Sequence record: KF620435
DNA length: 64,000 nt
From: Shigella phage pSb-1
Strand: one strand, 5' to 3'
The translations under genes were made by a program, and so were the position numbers. Positions 1,332-50,891 of this stretch are shown piece after piece. How positions within the stretch are numbered: position 1 is the stretch's first letter; each line of letters opens with the position of its first letter. The notes under the pieces are model-generated. The model saw only the letters and a list, made by a program, of their open reading frames with translations, did not search any database and was not told where the DNA came from.

Positions 1332-3602
1332 TTATAGGTTCATACCAAGAGCCGATGCTGGGTCTTGGCTAGGGTCATAATACTGGGAACTGAGTGAATA
1401 AGTCGGATCTTGCTGTGCAGCTAAGTCACGTTCCTGTAAAGAGTTCCCGTTAGTCAAAGCGTTATATCCGACAGCAGCAGATATGTTGGGGGTAGTTTCA
1501 CCTTCTTTAGTAGGTGTTGTCAACGCCTTAGTTATTTGAAGGTTCTGGTTTCCTTGAGATTGTGCTTTTTGTTTTTCCATATCACGAGCATGTTTAGTAC
1601 CAGATTCCTGTTCCAGATAATCCAAATCTTTGAGGTCACCACTAGAAGCTGCTTCTTTAGCCTTAGCCATATTGAGTGCAATCTTACTTTGTAACTCTTC
1701 ATTCTCAAGCTGTGCTTTCTGAATTGCCAATTGCTTAAGCTGTTCTTCCATAGGGTCTGGCTGTGGTTTCCAGGTACGTAATTCATGAGCAAGGTCTGGC
1801 ATACGTTTAAGTTCTGCAATCTTAGCTACAAGAGATAACGTAATAGTCTGATCAACTGTATTACCTAACGTTTGAACCATGAAGCTCAGGTCCTGAGATT
1901 TCTGGTTATCAATTTCAGCAGTATTAATATCAACCTCAATATCGAAGTTACCTTTAAGGTCTTCACGGTTAATTTCTACATACTGCTCATTAGTAATACG
2001 TACTACTTCTTTCTCAGATAAGAACACAGCATTCATTGCACAAATCTTAGTACCAATGTCTGCCATACCCTTAGCTAATCGACGAAGGATTGCCATCTCA
2101 CGTTTGGATGCTGCATCGAGTGCACCACGAATACCAGCAGCCACATCTCCGTAAGCTGCACCAGTTACACCACCAGAGAATGCTTTAACACCGGTTAGTG
2201 CTTCAGCTTCCTGGTTCTGCATCTGAGTCATCACTATTGCTGACTGAGGTAACTCAGGGAACTTGTGTTCCATAATGGCCTGGCTAGGATTACCCTGCAT
2301 TGGGTTATACTCATAGTCTTGCCCGTCATCATATCGACGTCGATTCAGAGTATCTAACATCCCTTTAGGGTAACCACGTTGTCCGTTTGCACTTCGACCT
2401 AACAGGTCAATCATCCCACGCATAGTTGCACCAAGAATTGCCTGGTTATCACCTAACAGCTCAGCATCAGCTTCACCAAAGAGTTCACGTTTACGGGGCA
2501 TGTAGGGAACAACTACCAAAGGTAACTTACCATCCGGGAATGGGTTCTTCTCCATACGAATAAGGGTGGAACCAATCCAGGTAGCTACAATTGGTTCCAG
2601 TGAACCATCATCATTAATGTCGTAAAATCCCCAGTATTCATAAGCAACAACTTTCTTACGAAGTGCATCCTTAAACTGGAAGTCACTAGGAGTTTTACTC
2701 TCATGGTCTGGGTCAGTCATAGGACTAGAACTTTCCCAGTCAATCTTATCCAGGTTGTGATAACGGTCCTTATTCTTCATTAGGTCTGCTTTGCAAGTCT
2801 CAAATGAGATAACTGCATACAGAGCCTTATCCAAATCGCCATTACAGCTTGGGTCAATAACTACGTTATTAGGGTTAAGCATTTCAACAGTAGGTCTGTT
2901 AACCAGTGCCTTCTCTATCTCTACCTCAGTAACTCCTGTCTGGATTGCATAGGTAGCTTCCCCAGTTTCATTGAAGTAGTTAACAGCTTCCTTAATATCT
3001 TCCGGCATCGTTTCGTCATATTCACGGGGATTCTCTGCCTGAAGCTGTAAAGCCTGCTGAAGAATATCTGCTTGTTCCTGGTTCTCAATTGGATACAACT
3101 GGAAGACCGGAGTTTCTGTTTTAATCTTAACAGTCTTACGTTCCCAACCAATGCGAGCAATACCAGTACCATCATCCACGATACTATGTACGTAATCATC
3201 CACCAGTTTTACTTTATTAAGCTGGGTACGGAATTGGTAGTTAAGAACTAATTCATTCTGACGTGCAGCTAACTCATCCTCAAAAGTAACAGGGGTTACC
3301 TTAAAGAGTTTGTTGGATGAGAGGAATGGTTCAGACAATGGTGCATAACGCCATTCTGCCTGACGGCGAACCAGTCTAGGTTGGACTTGTGAACGTCCTT
3401 TAACCTTTGGGGGTTTAGCCTTACCTTTGACTTCCATCAGGTCATTCCACTCACGAATCTGTGCCATGATTGCATCGTGAGCAGGTTTAGCAGATTCCAA
3501 ATCACCCTTGAGTAATTGGATACTTGGTTCCTTCTTCCAATCCGTTAATTTCTCTGATTGAGCCGGGTCTGGTAAAGGCTTAAAAGTGTCTTGGTGTTCC
3601 AT
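1332..3602 (-). CDS. portal protein (N4 gp59-like)
   Basis: 756-aa intact ORF in late block; size and position match N4-like portal; no specific motif read. Confidence 0.55.
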
Positions 3603-3604
3603 AG

Positions 3605-4132
3605 TTATTCCTGTTCAAAAAGTTTACGGTCAGCCTGAATCTGTTTACCCAACTCAATTAGTTGGCTGTCACGGAGTCTAACAGTTGCCCTGAGTTCTTC
3701 AACCAAACGTCTGCCTTCTTCAAGACTGTTGTCGAGTCTGGCTGCATGGCTTGCAAGACTTCTGCACTCAAAGGTTCCGGCTTCGGCTTGACGTTTATAT
3801 ACCGATGCTCGTCTTTCAGACTGTTGCATCCGGCTGTCATAATCACTGCTAACGCGAGCAAGCTCGCTTGCGTAATTACTCTCAGCCGTCTGCAACCGGG
3901 AAGTAAGTAACCCAACTTCATAACTATGGTTTCTTTGGAGAGCATTGTATTTGTCCTGTAATTTTTGTATTGCCTTCTGATCTTCAATCTTTTGGTCATC
4001 CCACTTCTTTTGAACAGTAGACTGTCCGTTGGAATTACCCCAAAAGTAAATGGTGGCCCCGAGGACCACCACCAGAAGATAAGGCCAACCTTTAGAGATT
4101 AGCATCTTCATTACATGCCTCCAGCGGCACAT
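3605..4132 (-). CDS. i-spanin (Rz-like)
   Basis: N-terminal TM segment ([16 protein letters not shown]) followed by long coiled-coil; contains embedded out-of-frame lipoprotein ORF. Confidence 0.6.
3658..3921 (-). CDS. o-spanin (Rz1-like lipoprotein) embedded in i-spanin gene
   Basis: alternate frame inside Rz; signal peptide with lipobox ([12 protein letters not shown]); start chosen at internal Met. Confidence 0.5.
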   Translation of the reverse strand: MKLGYLLPGCRRLRVITQASLLALAVIMTAGCNSLKDEHRYINVKPKPEPLSAEVLQAMQPDSTTVLKKADVWLKNSGQLLDSVTAN

Positions 4133-26114: not shown

Positions 26115-26321
26115 ATGGCAAGCATTGACTCCTTGACCGTATGTAATTCACGTCAAGCTCGTAACTTTATTATCCGTGCCCTAAAAGCAGGCAACGTACC
26201 GTTCCTGACTTCATCACCCGGCATGGGTAAATCTGCAATCATTCGTTCTATTGCAGAAGAATTTGGCATGAAGCTGATAGACCACCGTCTATCTACTTCT
26301 GCCCCGGAAGACCTTAACTAA
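26115..26321 (+). CDS. AAA+ (MoxR-like) ATPase, 5' exon-like segment
   Basis: Walker A SSPGMGKSAI; ORF stops right before HNH ORF; Walker B lies 0.9 kb downstream in another frame. Confidence 0.6.
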   Translation: MASIDSLTVCNSRQARNFIIRALKAGNVPFLTSSPGMGKSAIIRSIAEEFGMKLIDHRLSTSAPEDLN

Positions 26322-27192
26322 TAGGGCTTTGTGGGGGTGACCTCACATCGAAAGCTATCTAAATGGGGAAACTCCTACTATTACAGGGAAACCATGATAC
26401 ACTCTGGTTTCCCAATAGAGGACAATCCCATGCTAAATATTAATGAAAGTTGGAAAGACATTGTTGGTTATGAAGGTTACTATGAAGTCTCTACGCATGG
26501 TCGCGTTAGAAATACCCGTACAGGTATGATAAAGAACCAATGTGTACAGACTAGCGGTAAGTATCTACAAGTCAGTTTGTGGAAAGGCAACAAAGAAAAA
26601 AGATGTTTAATACATCGCTTAGTTGCTATAGCCTTCATTCCTAACCCTGAAGACAAGCCTCAAGTAAACCATTTAGACAAAAATGATAAGAACAACCATG
26701 TTCAAAATTTGGAATGGGTAACCATATCCGAGAATCATTTACATGCATTTGCTAATGGTAGAAAAGGCTCCAAATCCCGACTAGGTGAAAAAACTAGTAA
26801 AGCCTCTCAGTACCGATATGTGTACTGGGATACCAAAAGAGCTGTTTGGAAAGCATCTATAAAGATAGATGGCAAAACAGTAAACATTGGTAGATTCAAT
26901 ACTGACCTAGAGGCAGCTTTAGCCGCTGATGAGGCAATTGATTCCTGGGGCTGGGATAGAATTAAAAACTTTCAATAATTAAATGCCTAACGACTATCGA
27001 AAACACGTAGTGATACGGAAGTGAGTAGAGTAGGGTGCAAGCCAATGGCACTCGAAAAGATAGCCACCCGGACAGGTAAAGCTGAGGGTGTTGATATAGT
27101 CTGGTCTGCGTAGTAATACGTAGCTGTATATGTCCAACTCGCATATACGGGTAGAGCCTTGCAAACTCTACTGAACATAACGTAGTGGTCTG
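26320..27192 (+). mobile_element. putative group I intron carrying an HNH homing endonuclease gene, interrupting the AAA+ ATPase gene
   Basis: ATPase Walker A and Walker B separated by about 870 nt containing HNH ORF plus about 200 nt non-coding; boundaries approximate. Confidence 0.45.
26331..26978 (+). CDS. HNH homing endonuclease (NUMOD4 + HNH + AP2-like)
   Basis: GYEGYYEVSTHGRVRN, VNHLDKNDKNNHVQNLEWVTISEN, AP2-like YRYVYWDTKRAVWKASIKIDGKTVNIGRF. Confidence 0.8.
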   Translation: MGVTSHRKLSKWGNSYYYRETMIHSGFPIEDNPMLNINESWKDIVGYEGYYEVSTHGRVRNTRTGMIKNQCVQTSGKYLQVSLWKGNKEKRCLIHRLVAIAFIPNPEDKPQVNHLDKNDKNNHVQNLEWVTISENHLHAFANGRKGSKSRLGEKTSKASQYRYVYWDTKRAVWKASIKIDGKTVNIGRFNTDLEAALAADEAIDSWGWDRIKNFQ

Positions 27193-28035
27193 CCATTCCG
27201 TAATGGTGACCGTGCAGAGTTTATTCCATTCGCTGACTTATTCCCTATTGAAGGGGATGAAGTACCAGAAGGATATAACGGGTGGCTCCTGTTCCTTGAT
27301 GAGTTCCCATCCGCTCGTAAAGAAGTAATAGCTGCTGCATACAAACTAATTCTAGACCGTATGACAGGTCAGAAAAAACTTCATCCTAATGTGATGATTG
27401 TCTGTGCTGGTAACAAAGCTACTGACCGTGCCATTGTTAACCCGCTAGGCACTGCAATGCAGTCTCGTGTGGTCCATTTTGAAATGGAACTTAACTTCGA
27501 CATCTTTGTTGAAGACGTAATGATTCCTCAACAATGGGATGAACGTCTGGTTGCATTCTTACATGCTAACCCTGGTTATCTGCATGACTTCGACCCGGCC
27601 CATAAGAACAAAACATTCTGTTGTCCTCGTACTTGGGACTTTGTTAATAAAGACCTCAAGAACCAGCCAGAAGGTGCTCTTCCTGATGAAGATTCCATCT
27701 ACTATGCAGGTCACGTTACTGCTGGTAAGGCTACAGAATTTGTTCAGTTCACTCAGGTATATAATCGTATCATTACGATTGAAAAGGTAGTCAAAGACCC
27801 ACTGGGCTGTGCACTACCGGAAGATAACAACCTGTGCTGGGCTACCGTTAACCATCTGGCTAACAAAACTACTGAAGAGAACTTTGTTGATGTTCTTCAG
27901 TACATTGAACGCTTTAAAACGTTCACCCATAAGATTCTGTACTTCCGTACAGTAGGCAATGCATTACCAGATCTTCAGGCTACTCCTGAATGGCGTAAGG
28001 CTGCTGCTAATATCTCTCGTTACATTCACGGATAA
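27193..28035 (+). CDS. AAA+ (MoxR-like) ATPase, 3' exon-like segment
   Basis: frame open from 27181; Walker B LLFLDEF, sensor MIVCAGN; ORF track starts it at 27361. Confidence 0.55.
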   Translation, partial: PFRNGDRAEFIPFADLFPIEGDEVPEGYNGWLLFLDEFPSARKEVIAAAYKLILDRMTGQKKLHPNVMIVCAGNKATDRAIVNPLGTAMQSRVVHFEMELNFDIFVEDVMIPQQWDERLVAFLHANPGYLHDFDPAHKNKTFCCPRTWDFVNKDLKNQPEGALPDEDSIYYAGHVTAGKATEFVQFTQVYNRIITIEKVVKDPLGCALPEDNNLCWATVNHLANKTTEENFVDVLQYIERFKTFTHKILYFRTVGNALPDLQATPEWRKAAANISRYIHG

Positions 28036-28042
28036 TCACAAC

Positions 28043-28546
28043 ATGAACCAATTTCCTCAGCACACACTTAGTGATGAACAACTCATGCGTGAGTACGACC
28101 GTATTCAGGCTAAGGCGTTTCTTGGACGCAGTGCAGCGTTCTTTGGTTCATTACTGTGTAGTCTTAAGTTCTCATGGAATCGTGAGAATTGTCCCACTGC
28201 ATGTACTGATGGGATAGAACTCCATTTCAACCCAGACTTCTTTATCTGGATGTGTCCAGATGCAAGAGAAACAGTGTTAATGCACGAACTCTGGCATGTG
28301 GCATATCTACATGACATCCGTCGTGGAAGCCGTGACCCAGAAGTCTGGAACCAGGCATGTGACCACTTCATTAACCTTCAGTTAGAAGAAGATGGTTACA
28401 AGTTCACTGGCATTGATAAAGGCATTTGCAAAGACCCTCAATATAAAGGATGGGTCGAAGAAGACATCTACGATGACCTGATGAAGAACCTCAGAAAAGG
28501 CAGAAGCCGTCTGGGGGTGCTGGAGCTGGTCTTGCTGGCGACATGA
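28043..28546 (+). CDS. putative metallopeptidase-like domain protein (DUF2201_N-like), possibly fused to the downstream VWA ORF
   Basis: HELWH (HExxH) motif; G5 homopolymer at 28513-28517 lies before the VWA ORF. Confidence 0.4.
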   Translation: MNQFPQHTLSDEQLMREYDRIQAKAFLGRSAAFFGSLLCSLKFSWNRENCPTACTDGIELHFNPDFFIWMCPDARETVLMHELWHVAYLHDIRRGSRDPEVWNQACDHFINLQLEEDGYKFTGIDKGICKDPQYKGWVEEDIYDDLMKNLRKGRSRLGVLELVLLAT

Positions 28547-28601
28547 AATCCCCACTTCGGGGCAGTCCCAGGGTGCTGTTGTCAACAACGTAGTACGTGC
28601 A

Positions 28602-29216
28602 ATGCAGAGCCAGAAGATGGCTGGTGGACAGATGCCCGGTAAAGGTGCTGGTCGTATGGAAGAGGTTATTACCCAATTCCTTAAACCAGTGGTTCCATGG
28701 CAGGAAGTTCTGATGAACTTCTTTACCGACATTGATGACACTCACTATACGTGGGCCAGGCCTAACCGTCGTTACACTGACATTTATCTACCTTCCCTGG
28801 AAGATGATGAAGGACGCTTACGACACTTAGCTTATTTTGAGGATGTATCTGGTTCTATTAGTAGTGCTGATTCTCTGCGTTTTAACTCAGAGGTTGCCTA
28901 TGTTAAGAGCCAGTTCAATCCTAAGAAGATGTCCCTAATTACCTTCGACGATGTTATCCAGGAAGAGATAGACATCACTGAAGAAGATACTTTTGAAGAG
29001 ATTAAGATTACAGGTCGTGGTGGTACAAGCCTTGTGCCTGTACGAGATTGGATTATTAAGAATAAGCCAACCGCTGCAATCATATTCTCCGATATGTATG
29101 TTCGTCCAATGGAAGAATTGCCATTTGATATCCCCATCATCTGGTGTGTTCTGAATAATCCCAATGCTACCGTACCTTTTGGGGAGGTAGTTCATATCCC
29201 TAAAGGAATGAAATAA
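28602..29216 (+). CDS. VWA-domain protein
   Basis: MIDAS-like DVSGSIS motif; adjacent to AAA+ ATPase. Confidence 0.55.
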   Translation: MQSQKMAGGQMPGKGAGRMEEVITQFLKPVVPWQEVLMNFFTDIDDTHYTWARPNRRYTDIYLPSLEDDEGRLRHLAYFEDVSGSISSADSLRFNSEVAYVKSQFNPKKMSLITFDDVIQEEIDITEEDTFEEIKITGRGGTSLVPVRDWIIKNKPTAAIIFSDMYVRPMEELPFDIPIIWCVLNNPNATVPFGEVVHIPKGMK

Positions 29217-50421: not shown

Positions 50422-50821
50422 TATCGTGAAGGGTTCTGTTAGAATCCTTTGAGATAGGAACTCCTATCATAACCTTTCTTAACTTAATCTTTGCCGTATG
50501 GCACTGACGCTAGGGGTGGCCCCCCATCCGTCAGTCAGACTATTTTAAGAATGGGTTATCACAGAAAATGTAAAGCAACATTCGGGTTAATCAATGGCCT
50601 CTCCCTATAGAGGCCATTTCTGAATCTTAGGCTATATCCCAAAGGTTAGTATCTTTGGGATAAGGCTTCAGATCCCTTATCAACTAACGCTCATGTTGAG
50701 CACAACATTAACTAATAATGTCGGATAGTTCATTACGCTATTCATTCAGCATCGAGATGTTAGGTCTTACATGTAATATAGGGTATAAAGGGAGGATTCG
50801 TCCCCTCCTCCTATTATAATG

Positions 50822-50891
50822 GTCGGGGTAGCACGTAGGCATGTGCAGCTGGTCGCTACTTCTCTCGCTGGTTCGAATCCAGCCCCTGACC
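50822..50891 (+). tRNA. tRNA-like gene (anticodon arm not canonically foldable as given)
   Basis: acceptor GTCGGGG/CCCTGAC, D arm GCAC/GTGC, T arm GCTGG-TTCGAAT-CCAGC; anticodon region 2-3 nt too short. Confidence 0.55.

Follow-up and report, generated by a model that had tools for sequence, protein, structure and literature searches.

The N4 gp24-like AAA ATPase gene of Shigella phage pSb-1, a Gamaleyavirus (N4-like coliphage/Shigella phage), is very probably interrupted by a mobile group I intron of subgroup IA2 that is homologous to the td intron of phage T4 and is predicted to splice. The gene lies at 26115-28035 on the + strand of the window, the whole stretch of 64,000 nucleotides that was analysed. 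Group I introns with homing endonuclease genes are well-known selfish elements, and one in a phage gene is of a well-known kind; the case changes no concept, and its main value lies in correct annotation, as a single ATPase gene that carries a mobile intron. The deposited records of pSb-1 and PW8 instead list three genes that look unrelated, with an HNH endonuclease between a 'hypothetical protein' of 68 aa and a truncated 'ATPase', and the truncated exon-1 products appear to form an 'unknown function' PHROGs family of their own, phrog_21479. HNH-split gp24 genes in N4-like phages were reportedly noted in 2013.

The interrupted ATPase gene

The gene is uninterrupted, at 1053 nt, in 55 of 56 related phage records; the copy in pSb-1 is longer by exactly 868 nt. 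When aligned with the intact genes of ShWW44 and ECBP1, it divides into these parts:

26115-26314, + strand: exon 1 of the ATPase gene; codons 1-66 and two bases of codon 67, the second being U26314; Walker A (GMGKS) lies here
26315-27182, + strand: probable group I intron, subgroup IA2 (T4 td-like); 868 nt, starting UAACUAAUAGGGC and ending ...CUGAACAUAACG, with terminal G27182
27183-28035, + strand: exon 2 of the ATPase gene; runs from the third base of codon 67 to the stop after codon 350; Walker B (LLFLDEF) lies here

By tblastn, exon 1 is 100% identical to residues 1-67 of the ECBP1 ATPase, and exon 2 is 96.8% identical to residues 68-350. The initial annotation had described a Walker A frame that closes early and a Walker B frame that lacks a start, and both descriptions hold. 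The 68-codon frame from ATG 26115 contains SSPGMGKSAI and closes at TAA 26319-26321, adjoined by TAG 26322-26324, whereas the LLFLDEF frame is open from 27181, after TAA 27178-27180, and has no ATG, GTG or TTG from 27181 to 27360, its first start being ATG 27361, downstream of Walker B. With the intervening sequence removed in silico, the product is 350 aa, the same length as the ECBP1 and ShWW44 ATPases and collinear with them. This product matches phrog_1297 over residues 4-349 (E=6.7e-133) and Pfam AAA at 24.4 bits (cut-off 21.2); a PDB sequence search with the ATPase returned no match.

Alignment to the uninterrupted genes places the junction at 26314|27183, for which 26315|27184 is a sequence-equivalent reading. 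Group I introns have a U before the 5' splice site, in a U.G wobble within P1, and a terminal omega-G; 26314|27183 is the one placement among the sequence-equivalent ones that has both the U and a terminal G, G27182. The joined protein reads EDL|SGLPFRNG at this point. An earlier proposal of EDL|PFRNG (26315|27193) is incorrect because it would delete Ser-Gly-Leu, which is present in every intact homologue, and the 3' splice site is placed at 27182|27183 rather than 27192|27193. At the RNA/DNA level, the ligated exons would read ...GAAGACCU|UAGUGGUCUG..., and the junction peptide of the full-length ATPase would be ...STSAPEDLSGLPFR.... The intron-free sequence at the insertion site, as in ECBP1 or G7C, is CCAGAAGATCTTTCTGGTCTACC. 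The GAAGACCU|UAGUGG junction is invariant across all intron-carrying alleles, with clustered synonymous changes relative to intron-free alleles; the Ser68 codon, for example, is AGU in 8/8 intron-carrying genomes and UCU or UCA in the intron-free alleles examined.

The open frame within the insertion (26331-26978) is shared with exon 1, as would be the case for an intein. However, two in-frame stops (TAA and TAG, 26319-26324) and 204 nt of non-coding RNA core with stops (26979-27182, close to the 200 nt or so estimated earlier) lie between the coding parts, and read-through is therefore impossible. PW8 and 11 independent metagenome contigs carry this insertion too, which likewise rules out an assembly artefact. 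We give an intein, another protein-level element or an artefact practically no weight, this reading being already refuted by the sequence itself.

Homology of the ribozyme core

The two segments that flank the endonuclease gene are homologous to the T4 td intron, with identities of 73.4% in the 5' core and 72.2% in the 3' core. The 3' core matches introns in 299 phage records. A blastn search for distant relatives with the 5' core, a segment too short and too variable for this tool, matched PW8 only, and td homology was therefore demonstrated by direct alignment. A search profile of six other td-like introns, from which the present sequence was left out, matched only the two flanks within the 64-kb window at E<=1 (26977-27182, E=1.4e-35; 26329-26438, E=2.9e-14), and no further td-like core was found in the window.

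A covariance-model search for a group I core, as first suggested, gave a match that stayed under the Rfam threshold. In E-value mode, RF00028 scored 26.8 bits (E=1.4e-4 for a 1-kb stretch), below its gathering threshold of 50 bits, a low score that arises because the 549-nt ORF in P6 breaks the model. At the gathering threshold, one tRNA was the sole Rfam match in the whole window. The proven T4 td intron, run as a control with the same Rfam tool, reached 40.3 bits and thus also fell short, so the threshold test is undecisive for introns that contain an ORF. In its 5' half, the RF00028 alignment extends into the ORF and is meaningless there.

Assignment to subgroup IA2 follows from the td core homology, a P7.1 hairpin at 27006-27017 and a td-like GAGUAG...ACUCGAAA segment.

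Predicted fold and covariation

The predicted fold comprises the following elements, all on the + strand:

26308-26330, +: P1 hairpin; internal guide sequence 26322-26330, partner 26308-26316 (end of exon 1 and start of the intron)
26331-26346, +: P2 hairpin; GUGGGG, GUGA tetraloop, CCUCAC; 6/6 pair, with compensatory changes in every pair
26354-26360, +: P3 5' strand, GCUAUCU; partner 27058-27064; 7/7 pair, compensatory changes in 4/6 aligned pairs
26364-26430, +: P4-P5 domain; P4 26364-26368/26426-26430, P5 26373-26376/26419-26422, P5a 26378-26382/26414-26418, P5b 26386-26394/26405-26413
26985-26986, +: P6 3' strand, GC; partner G26432-C26433; conserved UAAAU stretches on either side
26992-26997, +: P7 5' strand, GACUAU; partner 27096-27101 (AUAGUC); pseudoknot with P3
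26999-27053, +: P7.1/P7.2 region, typical of IA2; hairpin CGUA-GUGA-UACG at 27006-27017
27058-27064, +: P3 3' strand, AGAUAGC; partner 26354-26360
27065-27090, +: P8 hairpin; CACCC, loop, GGGUG; 5/5 pair, compensatory changes in 4/6 aligned pairs
27091-27101, +: J8/7 and P7 3' strand, UUGAUAUAGUC; the best-conserved stretch of the group I intron core
27106-27171, +: peripheral 3' hairpins; P9 27106-27123 (GUAA loop), P9.1 27126-27148, P9.2 27151-27171
27183-27188, +: P10 strand in exon 2, UAGUGG; can pair with intron bases 26315-26320 (5/6 pair)

Covariation was assessed over 59 pairs in seven aligned related introns (alignment A1), with P7 added as a pseudoknot. In this alignment 93.9% of cells are paired and 35 of the 59 pairs show compensatory changes, against 36-42% paired cells and 4-8 compensatory pairs in slid-partner controls; none of 500 shuffles attained the observed values. 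RNAalifold recovers P1, P2, P3, P4, P5, P6, P8, P9 and P9.2, and the minimum-energy fold of a single sequence, an ORF-less construct, recovers the P4, P5, P5a and P5b helices.

At the 5' end, eight of the nine P1 positions pair, with one A.C mismatch; the U26314.G26324 wobble marks the 5' splice site, is U.G in 7/7 aligned introns and is flanked by pairs that covary. One metagenome copy (L014) replaces the P2 pair G26331-C26346 by A-U. All positions of the P4-P5 domain pair, with covariation in P4 and P5. P6 consists of two pairs, one of which has a compensatory A-U in NAN33P5 intron 2. P7, which by analogy is the guanosine-binding helix, pairs at 6/6 positions, with 97.6% of its cells paired and one compensatory change, U-A to C-G, in Vibrio phi 1. 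The U1G and NAN33P5 introns differ very little from the present one in the P7.1/P7.2 region, and GAUAUAGUC at 27093-27101, which aligns with the Rfam consensus at high posterior probability, is invariant or nearly so in alignment A1. All positions of P9, P9.1 and P9.2 pair, and compensatory changes occur in 5/7 pairs each of P9 and P9.2. Folded alone, the 204-nt 3' segment is not significantly better than shuffled sequence (z = -1.59), as expected for a segment whose pairing partners sit 600 nt upstream.

A mobile but non-splicing insert would leave the ATPase as two cooperating polypeptides, a 68-aa piece that holds Walker A and a C-terminal piece that holds Walker B. A precedent for such a split gene exists in the same phage group, since a similar insertion in g39, the DNA polymerase gene of the G7C-like phage 10Gb, was reported as non-splicing (bioRxiv 10.1101/542787). 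GenBank records annotate two 'ATPase' CDSs, and in PW8 the position equivalent to 27190 is a TTG that annotators used as the start. In pSb-1, however, 27190 is a CTG with no evident Shine-Dalgarno sequence, and exon 2 offers no in-frame ATG, GTG or TTG before 27361, past Walker B. Moreover, the complete ribozyme core has covariation behind it and is conserved at 100% in eight genomes, a degree of conservation that would be pointless in a non-splicing insert, and P1 and P10 fit the flanking exon bases. We therefore consider two separately translated halves quite unlikely. The preference of the initial annotation for a group I intron is upheld by the precise insertion, the td homology, the covariation of P1-P9.2, the splice-site rules and the start-less exon 2.

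The intron-encoded endonuclease

26430-26978, + strand: homing endonuclease gene; 182 aa, 549 nt; NUMOD4, HNH and AP2-like regions; I-HmuI-like; fills the P6 loop
26417-26422, + strand: Shine-Dalgarno-like AGAGGA within the 3' strands of P5a and P5; 7 nt separate it from the endonuclease ATG downstream

The first codons of the endonuclease gene overlap P4' and P6, and the same 182-aa frame was chosen by gene callers in six metagenome contigs and in the PW8 record. An HNH/AP2 ORF in the frame of exon 1 had been noted at the outset; the frame and the HNH assignment stand, with NUMOD4 (51.5 bits, cut-off 23.4) and HNH_3 (31.5 bits, cut-off 24.8) both above their Pfam cut-offs, whereas AP2, at 29 bits (E=1.3e-6), remains below its cut-off of 33.3. 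Residues 7-110 match I-HmuI (PDB 1U3E; E=9e-17), and the alignment preserves the catalytic His (H of 'vnH') and the Asn residues of the HNH motif. By family, the enzyme is an HNH endonuclease of the I-HmuI-like kind and presumably cleaves DNA. Its closest matches in IMG/VR were relatives of 39% identity only. The AGAGGA element, which lies inside P5a/P5, may have a regulatory role; no sigma-70-like promoter was found within the intron.

Proposed splicing and homing

In our model, transcription of the ATPase gene would yield a single pre-mRNA whose intron folds into the P1-P10 architecture. Free guanosine would attack after U26314, held in P1 by the U26314.G26324 wobble, and the freed 3'-OH of exon 1 would then attack after the terminal G27182, at a site positioned by P10 (27183-27188 with 26315-26320). 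The exons would join as ...GAC CU|U AGU GGU..., giving ...PEDL-SGLPF... in one 350-aa ATPase. In a mixed infection, ATPase genes lacking the intron would be nicked or cut by the endonuclease in the vicinity of codon 67; with the intron-carrying genome as the repair template, the intron would be copied in, along with a few bases of the adjoining exons. Splicing, the activity and target site of the endonuclease, and homing are all inferred here from sequence.

Distribution and signs of mobility

The distribution of the intron among related phages is patchy. Across eight intron-carrying genomes, the intron is 98-100% identical (3' core 100%, 5' core 95-100%, endonuclease gene 98-99.6%), whereas the host exons are 89-96% identical; for the rest of exon 2 the values are 89-94% in those comparisons that are free of confounding by an extra intron in one of the genomes (L017). 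That the intron is far more conserved than the exons that carry it points to its recent horizontal spread.

The adjoining gp25-like gene has two frameshifts in this assembly, and some genes in the record look damaged, as might be expected if the ATPase gene were a pseudogene holding a decayed intron in a phage that does without gp24. Against this, both exons have unbroken reading frames with 94-97% identity to functional homologues, the changes close to the junction are synonymous, the endonuclease ORF is likewise intact, and the same intron-carrying allele occurs in at least eight independent genomes. Decay is accordingly very unlikely.

Insertion sites in gp24-like genes across the Schitoviridae number at least five; those in the U1G and NAN33P5 genes were placed with an exact split-scoring script, default MAFFT having misplaced them. 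The closest RNA relative of the present intron occupies a site 114 nt further downstream in the ATPase gene of sister phages and likewise follows a ...CCU| exon end matching a near-identical guide sequence. We suggest, tentatively, that the gp24-like ATPase gene might be a hot spot in which one td-like intron lineage has moved repeatedly to new sites. If so, the gene would be a natural record of group I intron site switching, via reverse splicing or relaxed endonuclease specificity. The intron-encoded nuclease might also act as a weapon among co-infecting Gamaleyaviruses. The pSb-1 intron is a clean example for phage group I introns, with exact splice sites, an identical intron across diverged genomes and relatives elsewhere in the same gene, and the intron set of gp24-like genes can be used for studying homing and site switching in N4-like phages.

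Comparison with known systems

The closest RNA relative, 77.9% identical over 149 nt, is the intron of Escherichia phage U1G and intron 1 of the Gamaleyavirus NAN33P5, at the Walker B site. With the Schitoviridae introns of gp24-like genes (U1G, NAN33P5 introns 1 and 2, pYD6-A, Pollock, and Vibrio JA1/VchO139-I), the present intron has in common the host gene, the td-like family and a NUMOD4-HNH-AP2-like endonuclease, yet those endonucleases are only 34-38% identical to the present one. The insertion sites also differ, being after nt 200 (codon 67) here and after nt 314 (codon 105), near codon 119 and after nt 648 (codon 216) in the others; Pollock has an additional, ORF-less intron in the 5' part of its gp24-like gene.

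The g16 intron of G7C-like coliphages, for which RT-PCR and peptide mapping demonstrated splicing (Babenko et al., bioRxiv 10.1101/542787, 2019), belongs to the same genus and by its published description resembles the present one in its size of about 800 bp, its homing endonuclease ORF and its residence in an essential or core gene; its host gene encodes an RNA polymerase subunit (bioRxiv 10.1101/542787). I-HmuI, from the DNA polymerase intron of Bacillus phage SPO1 (PDB 1U3E), is likewise encoded inside a phage group I intron and aligns with the present endonuclease in the N-terminal DNA-binding sheet region and the HNH motif, whereas the C-terminal part is AP2-like here (below the Pfam threshold), unlike the C-terminal domain of I-HmuI.

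The T4 td intron is matched by a ribozyme core 72-73% identical in both halves, the same P1-P9.2 helix order including the P7.1/P7.2 region, the conserved core motif GAUAUAGUC, a 3' terminus of the form ...CUGAACAUAA(C/U)G and the placement of an ORF in the P6 loop. It differs in its host gene, which encodes thymidylate synthase rather than an AAA ATPase, and in carrying the GIY-YIG enzyme I-TevI rather than an HNH, I-HmuI-like enzyme, while the present intron has an extended P5a/P5b arm, a larger P7.1 and an ORF that begins inside P4'/P6 instead of deep in the loop.

The ATPase gene is interrupted at codon 67

The gp24-like AAA ATPase gene (26115-28035 of the window) carries an 868-nt insertion at codon 67, dividing it as follows.

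26115-26314: exon 1
26315-27182: predicted intron
26331-26978: ORF within the insertion, in the same frame as exon 1
27183-28035: exon 2

As the initial annotation had noted for the Walker A frame, the exon-1 frame from the ATG at 26115 (MASIDS...SSPGMGKSAI...APEDLN) ends at two consecutive stop codons, TAA (26319-21) and TAG (26322-24). The ATPase remainder, including ...LLFLDEF..., lies in a frame open over 27181-28035 whose earliest ATG, GTG or TTG is at 27361, past Walker B. After the ORF come 204 nt without an ORF, in agreement with the approximately 200 non-coding nt reported earlier. The joined ATPase scores 24.4 bits against Pfam AAA (cut-off 21.2).

By megablast, the window belongs to the genus Gamaleyavirus (G7C-like, N4-like; Schitoviridae). 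Among 56 related phage records, 55 have the gene uninterrupted (1053 nt, 350 aa); the insertion recurs only in Escherichia phage PW8, where it is annotated as ATPase, HNH endonuclease, ATPase. Proteins of pSb-1 identical to the 68-aa exon-1 product and to the 224-aa ATG-started C-terminal ORF are named 'hypothetical protein psb1_0062' and 'ATPase', respectively. ATPase residues 1-67 are also matched by phrog_21479 of PHROGs (68 positions, 'unknown function'; compare the 68-aa product of 26115-26321). Its members appear to be exon-1 fragments made by the codon-67 intron, in which case a reference library has taken up an annotation artefact.

Split-scoring alignment gave a surplus of exactly 868 bases over the uninterrupted genes, with four sequence-equivalent placements. 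Since a single one of them combines a U preceding the 5' site with a terminal G, we place the intron at 26315-27182. The joined exons read ...GAA GAC CU|U AGU GGU CUG CCA... (...E D L S G L P...), and the spliced 350-aa product is collinear with the intact ATPases of ECBP1 and ShWW44 and matches phrog_1297 'ATPase' over residues 4-349 (E=6.7e-133). The junction first proposed, EDL|PFRNG (26315|27193), would remove Ser-Gly-Leu, so its 3' side is misplaced by 9 nt.

The insertion resembles the T4 td intron

A covariance-model search, suggested in the initial annotation, found no match at the insertion at the Rfam gathering threshold and, in E-value mode, an Intron_gpI match of 26.8 bits, of which the core sequence GAUAUAGUC and helix P9 were convincing. 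Because T4 td itself scored only 40.3 bits with the same tool, a sub-threshold score is normal for this intron type with an ORF in the P6 loop. Taking td from the T4 record and aligning the two non-coding intron parts to it directly gave 73.4% identity for the 5' part and 72.2% for the 3' part, with common blocks AUCUAUCUAAA(C/U)GGGGAA, GACAAUCCC(G/A)UGCUAAAU, AAAUGCCUAACGACUAUC, GAUAUAGUCUG and CUGAACAUAA(U/C)G. A profile from six other td-like introns, the window intron left out, matched two places only in the 64-kb window: 26329-26438 (E=2.9e-14) and 26977-27182 (E=1.4e-35), the latter ending exactly at G27182. Searching with the 204-nt 3' segment gave matches in 299 phage records, several of them at an annotated homing endonuclease or interrupted terminase gene. 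On this sequence evidence, we assign the insertion to the group I introns of subgroup IA2, as a relative of T4 td.

Helices of the predicted fold
P1: 26308-16 / 26322-30; 8/9 paired, U26314.G26324 at the splice site
P2: 26331-46; GUGA loop
P3: 26354-60 / 27058-64
P4: 26364-68 / 26426-30
P5, P5a, P5b: 26373-26422
P6: 26432-33 / 26985-86
P7: 26992-97 / 27096-101
P7.1/P7.2: 26999-27053
P8: 27065-90
P9: 27106-23
P9.1: 27126-48
P9.2: 27151-71
P10: 27183-88 / 26315-20; 5/6 paired

Covariation was assessed on seven introns with ORFs removed (window, Escherichia phage U1G, NAN33P5 introns 1 and 2, T4 td, Escherichia phage Pollock, and DNA polymerase intron 1 of Vibrio phage phi 1). Unaided, RNAalifold found P1, P2, P3, P4, P5, P6, P8, P9 and P9.2, with compensatory changes in 34 of 53 pairs. 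Once P7 was included as a pseudoknot, pairing stood at 93.9% of cells and 35 of 59 pairs changed on both sides, values attained by 0 of 500 shuffles; sliding partners by 1-3 columns left 36-42% pairing and 4-8 two-sided-change pairs. In metagenome copy L014, G26331-C26346 of P2 becomes A-U.

The intron encodes an HNH endonuclease

The ORF wholly occupies the P6 loop. Its product matches Pfam NUMOD4 (51.5 bits) and HNH_3 (31.5 bits), with AP2 scoring below its cut-off (29 versus 33.3 bits). The HNH assignment and reading frame given initially hold. PHROGs places it in HNH endonuclease families, and it matches I-HmuI, the SPO1 intron endonuclease (PDB 1U3E), over residues 7-110 (E=9e-17), with the HNH histidine and asparagines conserved. 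Translation likely starts at ATG 26430 (182 aa), which has AGAGGA 7 nt upstream; the PW8 annotation and gene calling on six metagenome contigs use this start too. The ribosome-binding site lies inside P5a'/P5' and the start codon inside P4'/P6, so that a folded ribozyme would mask both, suggesting that folding may limit endonuclease translation. No sigma-70-like promoter was found within the intron.

Probable spread and splicing of the codon-67 intron

Eleven more contigs from public assemblies encode an identical exon-1 product, and in at least six of them the same 182-aa ORF comes next. Independent copies rule out an assembly artefact, as in-frame stops do an intein.

Pairwise identity among eight intron-carrying genomes
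3' core: 100%, for all pairs that cover it
5' core: 95-100%
Endonuclease gene: 98.2-99.6%
Exon 1: 94.5-98%
Rest of exon 2: 89-94%, comparisons free of the extra intron of metagenome contig L017

All intron-carrying alleles share GAAGACCU|UAGUGG, whereas the intron-free alleles examined read GAAGA(U/C)(C/U)U(U/G)|UC(U/A)GG. The differences are synonymous and clustered; the serine codon is UCN in intron-free and AGU in intron-carrying alleles, and AGU creates the P10 pairing. Such a pattern is what one would expect of an intron that spread horizontally not long ago, with short co-conversion tracts, and we infer homing with high confidence.

Permanent division of the ATPase without splicing is a real possibility in this phage group, given the similar g39 insertion of phage 10Gb, which is unspliced and yields two polypeptides with their own start signal (bioRxiv 10.1101/542787). 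It fits poorly here, because exon 2 has no in-frame start before Walker B (position 27190 is CTG, versus TTG in PW8), no part of the ribozyme core is missing and its conservation is strict, and the neighboring exon bases are adapted to pairing in P1 and P10. A pseudogene is contradicted by exons that are intact and conserved. Splicing is thus strongly favored by the sequence, and the initial preference for a group I intron over separately translated halves is supported by td homology, covariation and the startless exon 2.

Neighboring genes

The downstream gp25-like gene (28043-29216), DUF2201/VWA-like and encoding 391 aa in relatives, is split into two ORFs because two C-runs have each lost one base compared with PW8, ShWW44 and ECBP1: CCC is reduced to CC at about 28488, and CCCCC to CCCC at about 28549. 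In U1G, a single nucleotide is missing at another position close by. Homopolymer sequencing error is the likely cause, real frameshifts being possible. This gene is named 'HNH endonuclease' in ShWW44 (L002, 2676-3851), U1G (L004, 3946-5120) and Pollock (L008, 3443-4543), apparently a propagated misnomer; in L014, a true HNH_3 gene, free-standing, is inserted between the ATPase and gp25-like genes.

Elsewhere, 51472-51556 matches the Rfam tRNA model (54 bits), while ARAGORN found no tRNA in the whole window. In its acceptor arm and T arm it agrees with the tRNA-Ile annotated in ECBP1; the D-arm/anticodon-arm region is replaced by a different, longer sequence (24 nt versus 11 in the model). A weak tRNA-Sec-like match (50821-50891; 26.7 bits) is below threshold.

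Related introns in N4-like phages

Td-like introns with related endonucleases (34-45% identity to that of the window) occupy several other sites in gp24-like genes.

U1G and NAN33P5: after nt 314, codon 105, inside Walker B (L004 2318-3199; L005 1065-1946)
NAN33P5, second intron: after nt 648, codon 216 (L005 2281-3145)
Pollock: near codon 119

The NAN33P5 gene thus holds both the codon-105 and codon-216 introns. The pYD6-A intron, whose record already annotates a joined CDS, lies at about the codon-216 position, and L017 combines the codon-67 intron with a second endonuclease-containing insertion downstream in exon 2, probably at the codon-216 site. Pollock has in addition an unannotated ORF-less group I intron (L008 1252-1604; Rfam 101.4 bits) adjoining, upstream, the first recognized ATPase exon; gp30 (a 28-aa 'hypothetical protein') is probably the true first exon. 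That related introns recur at different positions within a single gene is, in our view, the most interesting aspect. The DNA polymerase gene of Vibrio phage phi 1 has two td-like introns (L009 1882-2717 and about 2977-3660) with one HNH endonuclease each, the first being the closest relative of the window endonuclease outside the PW8 lineage (44.6% identity).

A literature search, with the pSb-1 genome paper outside its scope, found no description of the codon-67 ATPase intron. HNH genes split homologues of gp24, DNA polymerase and gp43 in Vibrio N4-like phages, for which Fouts et al. (2013) suggested introns (PMC3670811); a td intron occurs in one N4-like Vibrio phage (PMC5746245), and an approximately 800-bp insertion in g16 of G7C-like phages splices, as RT-PCR demonstrated (Babenko et al., bioRxiv 10.1101/542787). 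Its sequence puts the codon-67 insertion in a well-known class of elements, mobile group IA2 introns that carry HNH homing endonucleases; the deposited genomes leave it unannotated.
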